A stretch of 64,000 bases of DNA from Escherichia phage NiC89. The notes below the pieces were generated by a model that saw only the letters and a program-made list of their open reading frames with translations, was not told where the DNA came from and made no database searches. Shown one piece after another: positions 14,058 through 63,984 of the stretch. Position numbers and translations under genes: made by a program. The stretch lies in the sequence record LC620505.1; one strand, written 5' to 3'. The stretch's first letter is position 1. Each line of letters begins with the position of its first letter.

Positions 14058-14081
14058 TCAATATCCTCATTTGCCCAATTA

Positions 14082-14111
14082 ATTATACCACATCCTTGTG
14101 GTAAAGTAAAC
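14082..14111 (-). promoter_or_regulatory. T4-type early promoter
   Basis: GTTTAC (14106-14111), 18-bp spacer, TGGTATAAT. Confidence 0.6.
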
Positions 14112-55947: not shown

Positions 55948-56268
55948 TTATAGCGTAATCCATTCTCGTACTGTCTGAGTTACTACACGTTCATGGGGCT
56001 CTACTAGTTCAACAGTCGGAACTGCATAATACCAGTCAGAATGATAAGAACCTGACCGAGATTCATTTACAGCCACATGTACATTATGTTTTGGACTAAA
56101 GTAAACACACTGACGATATTGACATTTACCATCTTGCACCCAGTCTTCTATTTCGACAGGTTTAAGATAATCGGAAAAATCGAAATCATAGTTTTCCGAA
56201 AATGCATCATGGTCTTCAATGATTTCGCTCAGAACTGCATCAACATCTAATTTATTTTCAATAGTCAT
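55948..56268 (-). CDS. Hypothetical protein, 106 aa
   Basis: ORF. Confidence 0.45.
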   Translation of the reverse strand: MTIENKLDVDAVLSEIIEDHDAFSENYDFDFSDYLKPVEIEDWVQDGKCQYRQCVYFSPKHNVHVAVNESRSGSYHSDWYYAVPTVELVEPHERVVTQTVREWITL

Positions 56269-56451
56269 TTTTCACCAATTAATTTCGCAATTTATTAAGT
56301 TCTTCATCATCAATCCAGGATTCTAGTCCTGATGGCAGGTCACATTCAATTTCCCAAAGAAGTTCTTCAATTTTCTGAAGACGATCTAGTTCTTCGGCTG
56401 GAATAGTAACCATTGACGGAGCTCGTGATACATTAATATCGTAAATCATAT

Positions 56452-56667
56452 TTACCCCAATTTAGCCATGCAATCGCCGTATTTCCACTTAGAAATAGAC
56501 TTTTCGCCATTAGAATAATAAACTTCGAGTTTAGCACGATTATTTTTAATTTGAATAACCTTTGCTGTCATCAAAGTTCCATACCCATAATAAACTGCAA
56601 CCTCATCACCTACATATACCGCGCTTCCGCGGTAGTCATGGATATAATCAGTCCCTTCGAGCATCAT
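56452..56667 (-). CDS. Hypothetical protein, 71 aa
   Basis: ORF immediately downstream of nrdC. Confidence 0.45.
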   Translation of the reverse strand: MMLEGTDYIHDYRGSAVYVGDEVAVYYGYGTLMTAKVIQIKNNRAKLEVYYSNGEKSISKWKYGDCMAKLG

Positions 56668-56927
56668 TTAAAGTATTCCCGCAATTGGTCAAATCCACCA
56701 ATATGACTTCCATCAGGAGCAAATACCTGAGGCATTGTCAAGCCGATTTGAGTATCACGACCTAGTTTAGTCAGAAGCTCAGCAATTTTCTCATCATCAA
56801 AAACACCTTTTTCCGGCATAATGTTGATAAATTCAAACGGCTGTTTCTTCACGGTCAAAAGACGTTTTGCATTATCGCAATACACACATTTATGAATGTT
56901 GCTATCATAACCATATACTTTAAACAT
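56664..56927 (-). CDS. nrdC: Thioredoxin/glutaredoxin NrdC
   Basis: 87 aa, same length as T4 NrdC; CVYC active site. Confidence 0.75.
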   Translation of the reverse strand: MFKVYGYDSNIHKCVYCDNAKRLLTVKKQPFEFINIMPEKGVFDDEKIAELLTKLGRDTQIGLTMPQVFAPDGSHIGGFDQLREYFK

Positions 56928-57174: not shown

Positions 57175-57564
57175 TTAATCCAAAATATTATTAGGCATTG
57201 GTTGAACACTCACAAGTTCTTTAAAGAACTCAGTAGAGTCAGGCAATTTAACCATTTCCGGAGCATGCTTACTGAATTTATGTTTACATTGACGGCATTT
57301 ATATTCAAGCTCTGGTTTACGCCAGTTAATCAACTGAACTTGTTCAGTACCGCATTCAGGGCAATTAGGAACGTTTTTAGAAGCTCTTTCACGTCGTTCA
57401 ACCATAGCCATAATAGCATCCCATGCTGGAGGTTTAAAATCTAAATCGTCGCAGCCGTGAATCTTTCCACGCATTTCCATATCATCTTCCTCACCAGCCA
57501 TAATAATTTTAATTAAACTGGAATTACTTGAAGCTGCAATGTCTTCTAATAAACGCTTTTTCAT
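57175..57564 (-). CDS. Hypothetical zinc-finger protein, 129 aa
   Basis: CPECG...CRQCKHKF pair. Confidence 0.5.
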
Positions 57565-58490
57565 TTCAATACCTCAATAGCATTACGTAAACCATTTGCT
57601 TTGGCGGTTAAAGCCTTAAGAACTTTAGTATGCTCTTCAATTTGTTTTTCAACTTCAGTCAAACGGGCATTGAGATATTCACGTTCTTCACCCAGATTAT
57701 CAACCTTTTCTACTTTAGGCTCTTTTACAACTGTCTTATATGTATTAGGGTTCTTCAGTTTAATTAGAATGCGTGAACTGTATAACATTGAACCATTATC
57801 TTCGGTTTCGTCATACATTTCCACTACGTCCATAATTTTTAACATCATGCGGAGTTTATAAGACAACGAACGAATAGTTTTGTTGTGCTTATTAATTTCT
57901 TTAGCTGTCATGGTGCCGAGATTACGTGAGTAATAATAAGGAACCTGGATATTAATTAATACTGATGAACCACCTGGCTTGTGTGTTACTTCATCAGCAA
58001 TAACCCAGTCCTTAACATGAACTGTATTTGTACGATCATCGCCCGCGGTAAACAGTTTGCGAGCATGCTTAAAAAGCATATTCACTTGGGTATTGAATTG
58101 ACAAGCAAATTTATCAGCAAATTTAGTTTCAGGAATGGTAGATAACCAATCAGCCAAATGGGTCTTTTTAACATCGTTAACAATAGTAAATTGAACCAAA
58201 TCGGTTATAGATGTCTCAGATTTAATGAAGCTCGGCTTCATAAAGTTTTTAATGTTATCACGAGCTATAGTAGAAGATAACATACGAGAACGTTTAAACC
58301 ATTCAAGCAAATTGCCTAACGAATGAGAATAAGCGTTTTGAGTATCTTTACAGATATGATTTTCCTGGCCAACATATTGAAGGAAATCACGAAGAATATT
58401 ATTGATTACTGCTCTGTGTCCGATCTGATAATTACGGTGTTTAGTAATAAGACTGTCAAAATAATCAATATAATGTTTACGAGTTTTCAT
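57561..58490 (-). CDS. Coiled-coil protein, 309 aa; member 1 of tandem paralogue family
   Basis: N-terminus MKTRKHYIDYF; C-terminal ~45-aa coiled coil. Confidence 0.6.
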   Translation of the reverse strand: MKTRKHYIDYFDSLITKHRNYQIGHRAVINNILRDFLQYVGQENHICKDTQNAYSHSLGNLLEWFKRSRMLSSTIARDNIKNFMKPSFIKSETSITDLVQFTIVNDVKKTHLADWLSTIPETKFADKFACQFNTQVNMLFKHARKLFTAGDDRTNTVHVKDWVIADEVTHKPGGSSVLINIQVPYYYSRNLGTMTAKEINKHNKTIRSLSYKLRMMLKIMDVVEMYDETEDNGSMLYSSRILIKLKNPNTYKTVVKEPKVEKVDNLGEEREYLNARLTEVEKQIEEHTKVLKALTAKANGLRNAIEVLK

Positions 58491-58541
58491 GTTCTTCTCA
58501 CTTGTTAATGATTTATACTCCGAGCCATCCTTGGCTTTAAA

Positions 58542-59543
58542 TTACTTAATTAACTGTAAAGCTTGTTCAAGACGATCCAAGCGATTAACAGATTCTTCCC
58601 AAATCTTTTTAGCCTTCTCATATTCTTTCTGCGCTTTATTAGAAATTTCTAGAACTTCTTTATAAGCTTTTTCTAGTGCAACAACTTCTGGACGAATTTC
58701 TACCGGTTCAAGTGAATCGTCAAGATTATCCATTAGTTCCTCAAGGGTAGTTTCTTCTTTAGGAGTATTCGCAATTTCTTCGCATTTTTGTTGGTAAATT
58801 TCTTTATCAGTTAGTGAATAAGCACATTTCACTTCACGAAGACTAATTACAATTTTATATCCTTCCCAACCACCAATATTTTTGAAAGGATATGTATGAA
58901 TACTTTTTACAGTTTCCATACAATCCAAAGCCGTCTCTAATTGATGAGTTATAGTGCTAGCAATTGAGAAAAATTTATTAATATTCTTTTGGTTAGCTTC
59001 TGGTGTAAAAAATTCATAATTCACAAAAATAGCTACTTTATTTTTATCAAGCTCATATTCTTTTACGATAATCATATCAGAAGCCAAAGGATGAATTTGA
59101 CGATAATCGCCATAACATAATTTAGAAGCTGATTTTAGAATTTGTCCTTTAAAAAGTCTGAAATTACTAATCCAACGACGAGTAAAAATATTCTTAGGGT
59201 CTTCTTTGATATTAAGATGATAAGAATTAACATCACCGAACCAATTGTATCCTATTACACCTTTAGTTCGTTTAATTTCTTTCCCAAAATTACCAAGAAT
59301 ATCCCGATTAACTAAATATGAAAGAAGACGAGACCCTTTAAAGATTATCTTAATATCATCTTTATCTACACGGCTAGAAATTTCACGAACTTCATGAATA
59401 AATTTACTGGAAGAAACAATACTTGCATCAATACCGCTGAGCCATTGATTGATAATAGAAAGAACAGCGTTCTGACTAGACATGGGTTTAACTTTATCAT
59501 CAATAACCCTATTGAATGATTTGATATATTCGTTACGAGTCAT
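58542..59543 (-). CDS. Coiled-coil protein, ~333 aa; member 2 of tandem paralogue family
   Basis: Track ORF runs through promoter; start taken at MTRNEYIKSF after GAGGAG; C-terminal coiled coil. Confidence 0.6.
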   Translation of the reverse strand: MTRNEYIKSFNRVIDDKVKPMSSQNAVLSIINQWLSGIDASIVSSSKFIHEVREISSRVDKDDIKIIFKGSRLLSYLVNRDILGNFGKEIKRTKGVIGYNWFGDVNSYHLNIKEDPKNIFTRRWISNFRLFKGQILKSASKLCYGDYRQIHPLASDMIIVKEYELDKNKVAIFVNYEFFTPEANQKNINKFFSIASTITHQLETALDCMETVKSIHTYPFKNIGGWEGYKIVISLREVKCAYSLTDKEIYQQKCEEIANTPKEETTLEELMDNLDDSLEPVEIRPEVVALEKAYKEVLEISNKAQKEYEKAKKIWEESVNRLDRLEQALQLIK

Positions 59544-59571
59544 ATTAATCTCCTCAGTAGAAAGTAAGAAC

Positions 59572-59601
59572 ATTATACCACATCCTTGTGGCAAAGTAAA
59601 C
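59572..59601 (-). promoter_or_regulatory. T4-type early promoter
   Basis: GTTTAC (59596-59601), 18-bp spacer, TGGTATAAT; near-identical to the cassette at 14082. Confidence 0.6.
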
Positions 59602-60620
59602 TAGTTCAGTGCATTTAATGCATTGTTCAGTTTAGAACGTTGCTTTGTCAGATTTTGAACCCTTGACTGAGCTTGTTCTAACGCCTTTTCAGCTTCTAGC
59701 ACTTCATTGGTCGCTTTAACGAGTTCATCATCTACTGTCTTAAGAGACTTCTCAATCGCATCCGCGTGCCATTTTTCAACAGGTTTAAGACTCGGATTTT
59801 CAGTAGGAAGAAAATTCACTTTATTAAATTTCCATGCATCTTTATTACCTGAGCTATACATCCAAAATTTAGGATCGTTTGATGAGCAATTAGATAAATT
59901 TAAGTTATCTTGCACTTCCTGCTTTTTCTCTTGCGGGACTTCATCCTTTCTCAAAAAATCGTATTTAAATGAAACGATCATATCAAGTTCATACGTTGTT
60001 GTATGTTCCCAATTTCGCTCAAAATGAGGTAAAATCTTAGATTGAACAGCGGCAACAACATCCATATACTTAAATGCTTCTGTCAACTGTGATTTAAGGC
60101 ATTCACAAATTGAAAGAGAATTTTTTGTATTAGGTTTAAAGCTAATTCGTGCAGTTCTATTATTTTCTTTTAATGGTCTTACTTCCATCTGAAGAGTATA
60201 ACCATCAAATTTCAGGTTCTTTAAGTTAATGTCAGAACCTTTTAATCGACTAGCTGTCGACAAAATTTGCTTTAATTGTTTACGGAATAGAGCAATAAAT
60301 CTCCATTCAAGACGGTAATGATTTGGATTAAAAAATCCTGTTGATAAATCAACCTTACTCTGACCAACGCCTTGAACAAATAGAGGATTTTTATAATCAA
60401 TAGTTTTACAGAAATCGGTGAGCTGTTCACGAGCAGTCATTTGCGTAATATATCCAGCTTTATCAAAATGTCGCAACCATTCACTGCTATTCATATACTT
60501 AAAGTGAATGGAACTATTAACTCTATCAGGGTCTAAATTATTTTGGCACAAAAATGTCATAACATTACGGGTATAGCTGGCATTACGAACCATATCTTCA
60601 ATTTGAGAACGAGTTTTCAT
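59601..60620 (-). CDS. Coiled-coil protein, 339 aa; member 3 of tandem paralogue family
   Basis: N-terminus MKTRSQIEDMV; C-terminal coiled coil. Confidence 0.6.
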   Translation of the reverse strand: MKTRSQIEDMVRNASYTRNVMTFLCQNNLDPDRVNSSIHFKYMNSSEWLRHFDKAGYITQMTAREQLTDFCKTIDYKNPLFVQGVGQSKVDLSTGFFNPNHYRLEWRFIALFRKQLKQILSTASRLKGSDINLKNLKFDGYTLQMEVRPLKENNRTARISFKPNTKNSLSICECLKSQLTEAFKYMDVVAAVQSKILPHFERNWEHTTTYELDMIVSFKYDFLRKDEVPQEKKQEVQDNLNLSNCSSNDPKFWMYSSGNKDAWKFNKVNFLPTENPSLKPVEKWHADAIEKSLKTVDDELVKATNEVLEAEKALEQAQSRVQNLTKQRSKLNNALNALN

Positions 60621-60628
60621 GGTATTCC

Positions 60629-61516
60629 TTAAGATTTAAGTAAATCAACAATTTTAATTAACTTTTCACGCTCAGATTTAGCTTTACTACTCAATCCAGA
60701 TAGTCTAAAGATTTCATCGTCATATTGTTGAATAGAAATATTCAGCTCTTCAATTTGCTTATTAAAATAATCAATTTGCTCAGAATGTTTTTCGTTACTA
60801 CGAACTGGTACAGGTTTTGTAGGCAATTTAGTTGAACTGGATTCATCCGGGCGATAAATTAAAATACAACTTGAACCAATTGGACATTTTGCACCAGATG
60901 AATATTCTAATGTTCCAGATTCTTTTAAAACTTCAAAAGCTAAACAGAGATGATGACCCATATTGACATAATCAGTAGAGCGAGCTCTGATGTAATAATC
61001 ATCTCCACGAGTACTAAATTTAAAGCATTTAAGGTCTTCTGTATTATTGGTCTTAAAAATCATTTGTTTATCTAGACCTTTAGCTAATCGAGCGCCTAAT
61101 GCTAATAATCGTCGTTGATTTTCCCACAAATCTGCAATCATTTGGTCAAATGATAATTTTGGCATTAGTCGACCATAAAGGTCATATCCTTTATTATAAT
61201 TACGAAGAATTTCACTCGCATTAATACGAGACAATGCTCCAATTTTATTAAGGGCTTTCATGATGCGATTAGATAAACTCATTCCAGATCCGTTTGTTCG
61301 CTGTAAATGTTTTTCTAATCCAAATCCAATATCAACTTTAAATTTATCTAAAATTTCAGCATGAACATCTCTGTCAATAACATTCAAATCCAAAGTTGGG
61401 TTAAATCTATGAAAAAATTTATCTGGCTCTCCACGACGAAGTACAGTCCATTCATTCAATTTTTTATTAACTAAAGATTTAATTACTGTATTGACATTAT
61501 TAATTACTACTGACAT
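60629..61516 (-). CDS. Coiled-coil protein, ~295 aa; member 4 of tandem paralogue family
   Basis: Start at MSVVINN after GAGGAAAAT; C-terminal coiled coil. Confidence 0.55.
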   Translation of the reverse strand: MSVVINNVNTVIKSLVNKKLNEWTVLRRGEPDKFFHRFNPTLDLNVIDRDVHAEILDKFKVDIGFGLEKHLQRTNGSGMSLSNRIMKALNKIGALSRINASEILRNYNKGYDLYGRLMPKLSFDQMIADLWENQRRLLALGARLAKGLDKQMIFKTNNTEDLKCFKFSTRGDDYYIRARSTDYVNMGHHLCLAFEVLKESGTLEYSSGAKCPIGSSCILIYRPDESSSTKLPTKPVPVRSNEKHSEQIDYFNKQIEELNISIQQYDDEIFRLSGLSSKAKSEREKLIKIVDLLKS

Positions 61517-61523
61517 ATTTTCC

Positions 61524-61931
61524 TCACTCAATTTCAATTTTACTAAATACACAGAATATGATGGAAAAGACTATATAAGCACCGCATACAGATTGAACTA
61601 ATACCATTCCAAAGAACCAAACGATATTATCAAACAATGTCTGTTTTACGTCGAAAGGACGTAAACTTACAGTAATATTATCACCTTTTTCTATTGAAGA
61701 ATACATCTCTGGGGAAATATATTCACTAAATCTATAACCGTCTTTGAGTTCATATACGGCAATAAACGATAAACTAGACCCCTTTCCTTGAGTTCCTGTA
61801 AGGGTATTAACTACAGTAACATCATAATCTTTATAATGCATATAATCATTAATAGCATAATAACCATATGCAACTACTATACATAAACAACATATCAATA
61901 AATTCAATCTTTTAATTATCAACTGTTTCAT
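61524..61931 (-). CDS. Membrane protein, 135 aa (N- and C-terminal TM segments)
   Basis: Hydrophobic segments at both ends. Confidence 0.55.
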   Translation of the reverse strand: MKQLIIKRLNLLICCLCIVVAYGYYAINDYMHYKDYDVTVVNTLTGTQGKGSSLSFIAVYELKDGYRFSEYISPEMYSSIEKGDNITVSLRPFDVKQTLFDNIVWFFGMVLVQSVCGAYIVFSIIFCVFSKIEIE

Positions 61932-61986
61932 AATAATCTCAATTAAAAGGGCTTAGAACCATTATACCATCCTTGGTATAAAGCGG

Positions 61987-62978: not shown

Positions 62979-63947
62979 TTATTTCAGAAGAGTAACCTCA
63001 GCGATTTCTTCCCAACCGTTTTTGTCGGTCATAATAAAGTCAGCAAGATAAAGAGCAGTACGCAGTGAAACATTGCGTAAACGATTAACATTGACTTTCA
63101 TCCATGATAATGCTTTATAAGTTTCTTCATCAGAAAGACCGCGCTTTTGCATCATGTCAGTTGAAAGAATAACATCTTCAACCCTGACCATAATTTCTTC
63201 ATTAGTGTGAACACCCAAATCTAAATAAACTGAGCGGGACACTAATGCTTGTAAATGTGGAGCAAGTTTAGTACCACGGTCTAATTCGCGGTCAATGTCA
63301 ACGTTTGTGATAAAAACAATCGTTCCTTTAAATTCAAACTCACGCTCAATGCCTTTTTCTTCTAAGTAAGAAGATGCAGTGCTCCAGCAGACTTTACGGG
63401 TCTCTCCAGTGTCCAGAGCGGCTTTTAGAAGATTAAGAATATCCATATCAGAGAAAACATCCACATCATCAATCAAAAGGACAGAATTCTCTTCACGATT
63501 ATTCCAAAGCTGCTCATAAAGACCGATACCGGAGATTTTACCGTTAATGCTTTTATATTCAATGTATCCAATATCATTTGCTTTATTTAAAGCTTTATCT
63601 AAAGAATACGTTTTACCAATACCTGCTGCACCAGAGATAATTAATGAACGAATGTTTCCGTTAATAATACCATTCGTCATCATTCCCATAACATTAAATC
63701 TTTTATTAATGCGGGTTTTCATATCTTCATACGATTCTTTAACTTCTTCAACTTTTACACCATCATATGAAATGTCTGATTTGTAAACCCAAACACCGCG
63801 ACGTTTACCGTCAATTTCAACAAAAACTTTACCATCTCCTTGTGCATCTACCGGAGCATTATCTGGGAACCATTCGCCTAAGAGCTCAAAAGTTCCAGAG
63901 ATTTCTTTACCGAAGTAGATACCCTTATTGATAGTTACAGTTTTCAT
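62979..63947 (-). CDS. P-loop NTPase, ~322 aa
   Basis: Walker A SGAAGIGKT, Walker B VLLIDDVD; start at MKTVTI after conserved GGAGAATAAA leader. Confidence 0.6.
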   Translation of the reverse strand: MKTVTINKGIYFGKEISGTFELLGEWFPDNAPVDAQGDGKVFVEIDGKRRGVWVYKSDISYDGVKVEEVKESYEDMKTRINKRFNVMGMMTNGIINGNIRSLIISGAAGIGKTYSLDKALNKANDIGYIEYKSINGKISGIGLYEQLWNNREENSVLLIDDVDVFSDMDILNLLKAALDTGETRKVCWSTASSYLEEKGIEREFEFKGTIVFITNVDIDRELDRGTKLAPHLQALVSRSVYLDLGVHTNEEIMVRVEDVILSTDMMQKRGLSDEETYKALSWMKVNVNRLRNVSLRTALYLADFIMTDKNGWEEIAEVTLLK

Positions 63948-63984
63948 TTTATTCTCCAAATCTGTATCAGTAGTTGATAGTTGT

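Follow-up and report, generated by a model that had tools for sequence, protein, structure and literature searches.

Positions 57561-61516 of the Escherichia phage NiC89 sequence (record LC620505.1; the whole stretch of 64,000 nucleotides that was analysed is called the window) carry four consecutive genes on the minus strand, and this array raises the question of whether its members descend from one ancestral gene and what they do for the phage. We found that the four genes are orthologues of nrdC.3, nrdC.4, nrdC.5 and nrdC.6 of phage T4 and that their products are remote paralogues belonging to one superfamily. As to function, it is moderately probable that the array encodes several proteins which are made early and inhibit the sensors of host defence, each directed against a different host immune protein. 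The four genes are as follows.

57561..58490, minus strand: nrdC.3 orthologue, an open reading frame (ORF) of 309 residues; PHROG 1435, E value 1e-114.
58542..59543, minus strand: nrdC.4 orthologue, 333 residues from an ATG; PHROG 1435, E value 3e-163; close homologues carry PF26897; AlphaFold2 model with a predicted local distance difference test score (pLDDT) of 84.
59601..60620, minus strand: nrdC.5 orthologue (DUF7235), 339 residues; Pfam PF23882, E value 2e-121.
60629..61516, minus strand: nrdC.6 orthologue, 295 residues from an ATG; close homologues carry PF26899; AlphaFold2 pLDDT 79.

The window belongs to Tequatrovirus by nucleotide and protein identity. In a nucleotide search, the 3956 bases of the array matched 656 phage records, nearly all of them Tequatrovirus, and the closest was phage ECML-363 (98.6% identity). 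Phage T4T matched with 91.5% identity across 92% of the query; in its annotation the genes in question are named nrdC.3, nrdC.4, nrdC.5 and nrdC.6, with 308, 333, 340 and 296 residues, respectively, against 309, 333, 339 and 295 in the window. The protein identities between the window and T4T are 62% for nrdC.3, 88% for nrdC.4, 92.6% for nrdC.5 and 98% for nrdC.6. The gene order on this single strand, nrdC.7-.6-.5-.4-.3-.2-.1-nrdC, is that of the T4 set. The four genes are thus the orthologues named above; they have long been annotated in T4 and the genes themselves were already known. A sequence-only reading of this DNA had described four consecutive minus-strand genes and expected nrdC.x counterparts in T4, and both expectations are borne out by the ORFs and by the T4T annotation. 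It had also placed the array downstream of nrdC. As nrdC lies at 56664-56927 on the minus strand, the array is in fact upstream (5') of nrdC in the direction of transcription.

The first point to be settled is whether the four proteins are related at all, since the same sequence-only reading called them paralogues. They could instead be four unrelated early proteins that each acquired a C-terminal helix by convergence and form no family. This is what ordinary sequence comparison would lead one to expect: BLASTP of all nine neighbourhood proteins against each other gave nothing significant (best E value among the four about 2.5), and phmmer with nrdC.3 against 1.84 billion representative proteins returned four matches, all of them nrdC.3, and did not reach nrdC.4, nrdC.5 or nrdC.6. 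Pfam and PHROGs likewise hold nrdC.5 (PF23882, PHROG 2351) and nrdC.6 (PF26899, PHROG 2257) as separate families. The databases join nrdC.3 and nrdC.4 only, which both match PHROG 1435 over their full length and both fall under Pfam PF26897 (Phage_T4_Y04OP). In precomputed annotation, PF26897 is carried by nrdC.4 homologues of 80-99% identity and by a hybrid protein with the C-terminal part of nrdC.3, and PF26899 (Phage_T4_Y05B) by nrdC.6 homologues of 95-99% identity; nrdC.6 itself matches PHROG 2257 with an E value of 8e-153. A Pfam scan with a set lacking the PF26897 and PF26899 models named nrdC.5 alone among the four, with 405.6 bits for DUF7235 (PF23882; cut-off 30) over model positions 1-307 of 307. 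Scans with PADLOC and NCBIfam gave sub-threshold noise only.

The comparison of profiles gave a different result. Family alignments were built from database homologues and compared by hhalign, with shuffled profiles as controls. The nrdC.3 and nrdC.4 families aligned with an E value of 2.7e-11 (probability 97%) over 221 collinear columns of the N-terminal part, and a profile-to-sequence search gave 3e-17 for the same pair. The nrdC.4 and nrdC.5 families aligned with an E value of 2.9e-4 over 243 collinear columns. With the heads only, this second pair scored 33.8, against 14.2 +/- 2.0 (maximum 18.9) for block-shuffled profiles and 14.0 for the reversed profile, or about 10 standard deviations. 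Coiled-coil composition was considered as the source of this similarity and was rejected because the score persists when the tails are removed.

With these first profiles nrdC.6 could not be linked to the others. To extend the profiles, the syntenic regions of other T4-like genera were fetched, anchored on the conserved neighbour nrdC.10. They yielded nrdC.6-like relatives in Mosigvirus (331 residues), Kanagawavirus CIP9 (338), Mosugukvirus PM2 (309) and Tegunavirus fHe-Yen9-01 (292), and nrdC.5-like relatives in Dhakavirus MX01 (291), Mosigvirus S143_2 (319) and Gaprivervirus SP18. With the extended profiles, nrdC.3 and nrdC.5 aligned end to end (E value 1.8e-5, 278 columns), nrdC.5 and nrdC.6 with an E value of 2.9e-6, and nrdC.3 and nrdC.6 with 1.3e-5 over 143 columns, while a merged nrdC.3/.4/.5 profile found the extended nrdC.6 profile with 2.3e-6. 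These four links stand 9-16 standard deviations above shuffled controls. Most pairs within the family lie at 9-24 standard deviations; nrdC.4 against the extended nrdC.5 and nrdC.6 profiles is weaker, at about 4-6.

The negative controls, nrdC.8 and a family of about 262 residues from other genera, mostly scored 12-17 against all four proteins. The exception was nrdC.8 against the extended nrdC.6 profile, which reached 26.4 in the helical tail region only. Both had been considered as possible members, nrdC.8 having a helical tail too, and both were rejected on their background scores. Scans for relatives seeded with single proteins (PM2, CIP9) returned near-identical loci only.

The profile alignments centre on one motif in the head of each protein.

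58032..58112, minus strand: shared head motif of nrdC.3, residues 127-153, KFACQFNTQVNMLFKHARKLFTAGDDR, from the profile alignments.
59100..59177, minus strand: shared head motif of nrdC.4, residues 123-148, RWISNFRLFKGQILKSASKLCYGDYR, with invariant W124, F128, I135, K137, K141 and R148.
60225..60308, minus strand: shared head motif of nrdC.5, residues 105-132, EWRFIALFRKQLKQILSTASRLKGSDIN, from the hhalign comparison of nrdC.4 and nrdC.5.
61064..61141, minus strand: shared head motif of nrdC.6, residues 126-151, MIADLWENQRRLLALGARLAKGLDKQ, with alignment invariants from D129 to M152.

Its core reads MLFKHARKLFTAGDD in nrdC.3, QILKSASKLCYGDYR in nrdC.4, QILSTASRLKGSDIN in nrdC.5 and RLLALGARLAKGLDK in nrdC.6, and follows the pattern hydrophobic-hydrophobic-x-x-A-x-K/R-L-x-x-G-x-D. 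In nrdC.6, the motif falls within the family's longest stretch of almost unbroken invariant columns.

The predicted structures agree with this picture. The architecture assigned to each protein is an alpha+beta head of about 230-270 residues, followed by a linker predicted to be disordered and by about 50 residues of C-terminal helix. Within the head, an N-terminal subdomain would be helical, and an alpha/beta sandwich would bear the shared motif. In the AlphaFold2 monomer models of nrdC.4 and nrdC.6, both heads open with several helices, and from the head motif on the order of elements is common to both. Two helices and a short one, which carry the motif, precede a first beta hairpin and a long helix; then come a second hairpin, a linker modelled with low confidence and the long helix at the terminus. 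Foldseek searches of BFVD with the two models matched the same proteins of T4-like phages, from PM2, IME523, fHyAci03, Mineola, CBH8 and Acj61, with E values of 1e-7 to 3e-3. The nrdC.4 model also matched a 308-residue fPS-65 protein (E value 8e-7), which has the length of the annotated nrdC.3 orthologue of fPS-65; the fold of nrdC.3 is covered solely by this match, the protein being taken as that orthologue. The TM-scores of the BFVD matches are low (0.2-0.5) and the root-mean-square deviations high, which we attribute to a tail helix that is probably placed freely in the models.

The C-terminal helices are the second element common to the four proteins.

57564..57686, minus strand: C-terminal amphipathic helix of nrdC.3, residues 269-309; heptad scan p about 0.005; the best conserved region of its family.
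58545..58691, minus strand: C-terminal helix of nrdC.4, 48 residues (285-333); AlphaFold2 helix 285-332; ends LEQALQLIK; lowest column entropy of the protein.
59604..59774, minus strand: C-terminal helix of nrdC.5, residues 283-339; runs from PVEKW to LNNALNALN in the tail alignment; heptad score reached by 0/200 shuffles.
60632..60793, minus strand: C-terminal helices of nrdC.6, residues 242-271 and 277-294, from the AlphaFold2 model, invariant tail columns and heptad scan; ends KLIKIVDLLKS.

When the C-termini are aligned on the right, the tail starts in all four families with Pro-Val(-Glu), 51-60 residues from the end (Pro-Lys-Val-Glu in nrdC.3), and ends with hydrophobic-x-x-(A/I/V)-hydrophobic-x-x-(L/I)-(K/N/R), placed at the free C-terminus or one residue short of it. 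This ending, which can be summarised as LxxA(L/I)xxLK-COOH, is present together with the PV start in most of the relatives examined from other genera. Among the window's 137 stop-to-stop ORFs with 80 residues or more, it was found in 4, and these are the four genes of the array; as the pattern was defined after looking, the count shows specificity and is no independent test.

Within each family, the column entropy of the tail is the lowest or near-lowest, and in the nrdC.4 family the tail residues are nearly invariant. Several of the conserved nrdC.4 positions, such as W315, E316, E317, S318 and R321, lie off a simple heptad core, which argues for a specific binding surface rather than a generic zipper. 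In a crude scan of our own for hydrophobic heptad periodicity over at least 28 residues, the tails of nrdC.3, nrdC.5 and nrdC.6 beat their shuffles (at most 0.5% of 200 reach the observed score). The scan fails for nrdC.4, so that the coiled coil as an oligomer is not demonstrated, and in the monomer models of nrdC.4 and nrdC.6 the tail is a long helix exposed to solvent. The division into a globular N-terminal part and a C-terminal helix, which had been proposed from the sequence, agrees with these results.

Conserved tails with a common terminal motif, on the products of adjacent and co-oriented genes (nrdC.7, nrdC.6 and nrdC.5 are separated by only 7-8 nucleotides), could also mean that the four proteins are subunits of one hetero-oligomer, joined by their C-terminal helices and acting on a single target. 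The tails are indeed the best or near-best conserved parts, but outside the last 10 or so residues they differ strongly between the families. Most other genera hold one to three members, therefore a fixed complex of four parts is not ancestral. In addition, nrdC.5 alone on a plasmid restored plating on cells with the defence protein Dsr1 (PMC9391042), in a mutant that may have kept other paralogues. We consider such a complex quite improbable.

Taken together, the profiles, the AlphaFold2 models, Foldseek and the shared motifs show that nrdC.3, nrdC.4, nrdC.5 and nrdC.6 are remote paralogues of one superfamily. Paralogy is held in spite of the negative pairwise BLASTP because the profiles, the structure models and the shared motifs agree; it is a remote relationship, and the close pairwise similarity that paralogues might have shown is missing. 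Convergence, in contrast, would have to account for profile scores of 9-24 standard deviations over the controls for most pairs, for up to 278 collinear columns, for unrelated neighbours that score at background, for the fold and Foldseek targets shared by the nrdC.4 and nrdC.6 models, and for a head motif, a PV helix start and a C-terminal motif common to all four. It is already largely refuted and we regard it as highly improbable. In relation to the existing PHROG 1435 and PF26897, to which nrdC.3 and nrdC.4 belong, the difference is that those groupings leave nrdC.5 and nrdC.6 outside, whereas here all four are joined. What is new is modest: the union of the four and their relatives in other genera in one superfamily, together with the conserved C-terminal handle, the mosaicism of the head that is described below, and the prediction that follows for nrdC.3, nrdC.4 and nrdC.6 as additional counter-defence genes.

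Expression of the array was considered next to its ancestry. The ORFs of nrdC.4 and nrdC.6 extend beyond the chosen ATGs, to a TTG at 59594 and a GTG at 61552, respectively, and Shine-Dalgarno sequences precede the chosen ATGs of nrdC.4 (GAGGAG), nrdC.5 (AAGGA) and nrdC.6 (TGAGGA). Three of the proteins share the MKTR/MTR start that had been noticed earlier (nrdC.3 MKTRKHY, nrdC.4 MTRNEY, nrdC.5 MKTRSQI); nrdC.6 starts with MSVVINN. Two intergenic elements are relevant here.

59572..59600, minus strand: predicted T4-type early promoter, TTTACT-17 nucleotides-TATAAT with an extended -10 TG, just after the nrdC.5 stop codon.
58491..58541, minus strand: spacer between nrdC.4 and nrdC.3, with a hairpin GCCA-AGGA-TGGC and TATAAAT.

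An early promoter between these two genes had been proposed from the sequence, and the proposal holds. The element at 59600-59572 is near-consensus (10/12), it fits the T4/PST early-promoter consensus TTTACW-N17-TAYWAT (PMC4122927), and the same position in phage fPS-65 is annotated as a predicted early promoter. From its place between nrdC.5 and nrdC.4, it would drive nrdC.4 and nrdC.3. Because it lies downstream of nrdC.5, this gene must be read from promoters farther upstream; nrdC.7, nrdC.6 and nrdC.5 are probably co-transcribed from there, and fPS-65 has promoters annotated near nrdC.8 and nrdC.9.

The promoter is part of a 32-nucleotide cassette, TAG TTTACT TT(G/A)CCACAAGGATGTGG TATAAT, which is present in two copies identical at 31 of 32 positions, at 14066-14097 and 59572-59603, both on the minus strand. 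Each copy follows a stop codon, and its spacer can form a small hairpin, CCACA-AGGA-TGTGG. The cassette core CCAAGGATGG recurs upstream of nrdC.7 (61955-61975, minus strand), followed by TATAAT, and in degenerate form in the spacer upstream of nrdC.3 (58515-58535, minus strand), where it is followed by TATAAAT, a sequence that resembles a T4 late promoter. A further predicted hairpin, at 59607-59625, lies just upstream of the promoter. An early promoter beside a stem-loop, repeated in the genome, is what defines the promoter-early stem-loop (PeSL) cassettes of T4-type phages (Arbiol 2010; Comeau 2014), and the array promoter resembles these in fitting the consensus and recurring almost identically. 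It differs in that its stem-loop falls within the nrdC.5 coding sequence and that no indel bounded by the cassettes is demonstrated. The pair of cassettes may possibly serve as a PeSL-type recombination substrate.

The distribution of the genes was determined by tblastn against 50,697 phage genomes, with counts given as records. There were 653 records for nrdC.3, 553 for nrdC.4, 541 for nrdC.5 and 741 for nrdC.6, every one of them a T4-like coliphage or a near relative of these. The family is restricted to T4-like (Straboviridae) phages, in which a genome has one to four copies: four in Tequatrovirus, three in Dhakavirus and Gaprivervirus (nrdC.6, an nrdC.5-like gene and nrdC.4), two or three in Mosigvirus, and one recognisable member each in PM2, CIP9, KP1 and Acinetobacter phage DLP1, the last assigned on weak evidence. 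In Shigella phage SP18 (Gaprivervirus), the nrdC.5-like gene is broken into the separate ORFs gp093 and gp092, which suggests a frameshift or the decay of one family member.

The ratio of non-synonymous to synonymous substitution rates (dN/dS) was compared between the window, T4T and fPS-65. It was 0.16-0.35 for nrdC.3, nrdC.4 and nrdC.5, against 0-0.08 for nrdC.6, nrdC.8, nrdC.10, gp49 and nrdC. An exception is the nearly identical nrdC.3 pair of T4T and fPS-65, with 1.0 at a dS of 0.016, and neither nrdC.7 (0.15-0.30) nor nrdC.9 (0.03-0.11) falls cleanly in the low group. The nrdC.3 gene of the window is a mosaic: residues 1-85 are of T4 type (85-100% identical), residues from about 85 to 270 resemble the Mosigvirus allele most (72-88% identity for the most part, compared with 41-58% to T4), and the tail is conserved across all alleles. 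In a database protein encoded on a 167-kb phage contig, nrdC.5 residues 146-270 are fused in frame to nrdC.3 residues 137-309, with nrdC.4 deleted; its junction is a short ...VN match out of homologous register. The mosaic nrdC.3 and the hybrid protein are marks of a recombining accessory locus. In other phages nrdC.6 also varies in length: Shigella phage Sf25 carries a 378-residue variant, 97% identical over 87% of the query and about 80 residues longer, and in Sf22 the tblastn match is divided in two over a span of 1227 bases, as if the gene had received an insertion.

The sequence-only reading had seen in the array a phage-host interaction locus, and variable copy number, raised dN/dS, the mosaic nrdC.3 and a published anti-defence activity of nrdC.5 all support this. 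It had further joined the array in one module with nrdC.7 and the P-loop gene nrdC.10 (62979-63959, minus strand; P-loop GAAGIGKT), which we could not uphold. The nrdC.10 gene was found at 35-100% identity in 1311 records, against 541-741 for the array genes, and these include Vibrio, Acinetobacter, Aeromonas and jumbo phages (121Q, Atu_ph07); its dN/dS is 0-0.03, and it looks like a widely conserved, core-like gene. The nrdC.8 gene is unrelated, as the controls showed.

The statement that these genes have no assignable function is outdated for nrdC.5. A T4 deletion mutant without nrdC.5 failed to grow on E. coli ECOR17 and on MG1655 with the ECOR17 dsr1 gene (PMC9391042), and T4 nrdC.5 expressed alone restored the growth of the mutant on Dsr1 cells; the authors class the gene as early and as a factor against host defence (Srikant, Guegler & Laub 2022, eLife, PMC9391042). 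Dsr1 is reported to have a tetratricopeptide repeat (TPR) sensor, which it shares with Avs7, and to be triggered by a phage major capsid protein (2026 preprint, PMC12803255); it was still termed poorly characterised in a 2026 paper. A literature search on nrdC.3 to nrdC.6 (DUF7235, the UniProt Y04O/Y04P/Y05A/Y05B names and Dsr1 inhibitors) led to Srikant et al. 2022 and to no other work. The naming of nrdC.8 as a 'nucleotide reductase' in a paper on DRT1 was set aside as a naming artefact irrelevant to the array. The gene at 59601-60620 is the orthologue of T4 NrdC.5 (Y05A; PF23882), 92.6% identical and in the same position between nrdC.6 and nrdC.4, and an anti-Dsr1 role can be carried over to it at this level of identity. 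The activity is known only for the T4 allele against the ECOR17 Dsr1, and the window allele differs from it at about 7% of residues.

From what was observed here, namely gene structure, common ancestry, promoter sequence, evolutionary pattern and the orthology of nrdC.5, it is moderately probable, as stated at the outset, that the whole array encodes inhibitors of defence sensors. For nrdC.3, nrdC.4 and nrdC.6, family membership, early expression, dispensability and the evolutionary pattern suggest an anti-defence role. The non-essential early genes would each give a stoichiometric inhibitor of one host immune protein, and the inhibitors would be in place before the sensors can be triggered by proteins of the late structural class, for instance the capsid protein. 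The fast-evolving, recombining head could determine target specificity and the conserved tail could be a common handle for oligomerisation or docking; direct binding to the target and this division of labour between head and tail are inferred.

Two kinds of known systems can be compared with the array. DSAD1 of an SPbeta-type phage is described (PMC10973363, PMC11087589, PMC11263360) as binding the sensor region of the SIR2-type NADase DSR2 in competition with the structural protein that triggers it, and the mode proposed for NrdC.5 would be analogous. Among the accessory anti-defence proteins of T4 that are encoded in hyperplastic regions, TifA, Dmd, AdfA, IPI/IPIII and Gp49.2 (PMC9391042; PMC13096335) are alike in being early, non-essential, strain-specific, clustered and often lost or amplified by recombination. 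They are mostly small and single-copy, whereas the array family has proteins of about 300-340 residues with several domains and one to four paralogous copies.

A more specific version of the inhibitor reading can be drawn by analogy. The array could be a modular inhibitor platform in which the invariant LxxA(L/I)xxLK-COOH handle docks on TPR-type sensors (Dsr1-like, Avs7-like), swappable heads choose the receptor or occlude the site of the capsid protein, and each paralogue or mosaic allele neutralises a different capsid-sensing receptor. The docking of the tail is proposed on the model of C-terminal peptides in TPR clamps. We put this forward as a speculation that is unlikely to hold.

Another explanation is that the paralogues serve the takeover of the host in general, for example by acting on its transcription, its DNA or its metabolism, and that the effect of nrdC.5 on Dsr1 is indirect. 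Three of the four genes have no phenotype on record, and the dN/dS of nrdC.6 is what a fixed host target would lead one to expect. Residues 30-86 of nrdC.3 (58233-58403, minus strand), FLQYVGQENHICKDTQNAYSHSLGNLLEWF, show a weak likeness to the SAM-like N-terminal (core-binding) domain with which tyrosine recombinases bind DNA, which would also fit; these matches are far under the curated cut-offs, with 14.1 bits against 22.3 in Pfam (E value 0.059) and 18.4 against 279 in NCBIfam (E value 0.001). A takeover function sits poorly with a family that is dispensable, variable in copy number and mosaic between genera, and with an nrdC.5 that is needed specifically on a Dsr1-bearing host, where its expression alone suffices (PMC9391042). 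This explanation is possible and, in our view, rather unlikely.

Several points weigh against the reading of the array as defence inhibitors of common descent. Functional data were found for nrdC.5 only, and direct binding of NrdC.5 to Dsr1 was not found in the literature searched. No similarity to any known anti-defence protein or solved structure was found, and a sequence search of the PDB with all four proteins gave no relative. Concerning the relationship, nrdC.4 and nrdC.6 are the weakest pair (E value 6.8e-3, 4.2 standard deviations), which rests on transitivity and the model structures, and the folds of nrdC.3 and nrdC.5 are suggested by sequence profiles. The heptad pattern of the nrdC.4 tail is non-significant (14% of 200 shuffles reach its score). 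Finally, nrdC.6 is the most conserved member, with a dN/dS of about 0.05-0.08; because this indicates strong purifying selection, a housekeeping-type role fits nrdC.6 better than an arms race, and its high conservation fits the anti-defence picture least well. Pairwise similarity among the four, whose lack would speak against paralogy, was missing with BLASTP and present with profiles.

The neighbourhood of the array on the nrdC side also varies between related phages. The nrdC.2 gene (57175-57564, minus strand) has 129 residues in the window, with a zinc-ribbon signature CPECG...CRQC, against 104 residues in T4T and 98 in fPS-65. Between 49.2 and nrdC (56279-56667, minus strand) there are two small ORFs of 56 and 71 residues, as in fPS-65, where one is annotated as an antitoxin; T4T carries gene 49.3 in their place, a gene replacement in the same hyperplastic region. 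The gene at 55948-56268 (minus strand), 1.3 kb from the array, is an orthologue of T4/T6 gene 49.2 and the second published anti-defence gene in the window, Gp49.2 of T6 having recently been reported to inhibit the OLD defence nuclease (PMC13096335).

To summarise, nrdC.5, the one phage factor known to counter the sirtuin defence Dsr1, is no orphan and belongs to a family of T4-like phages. With nrdC.3, nrdC.4 and nrdC.6, this adds three candidates to the anti-defence genes of the best studied phage, and it provides a domain hypothesis in which the head may be the specificity module and the tail a common handle. Should the paralogues prove to act on different immune receptors, the array would offer a compact model of how phages diversify their inhibitors through duplication and domain swapping.

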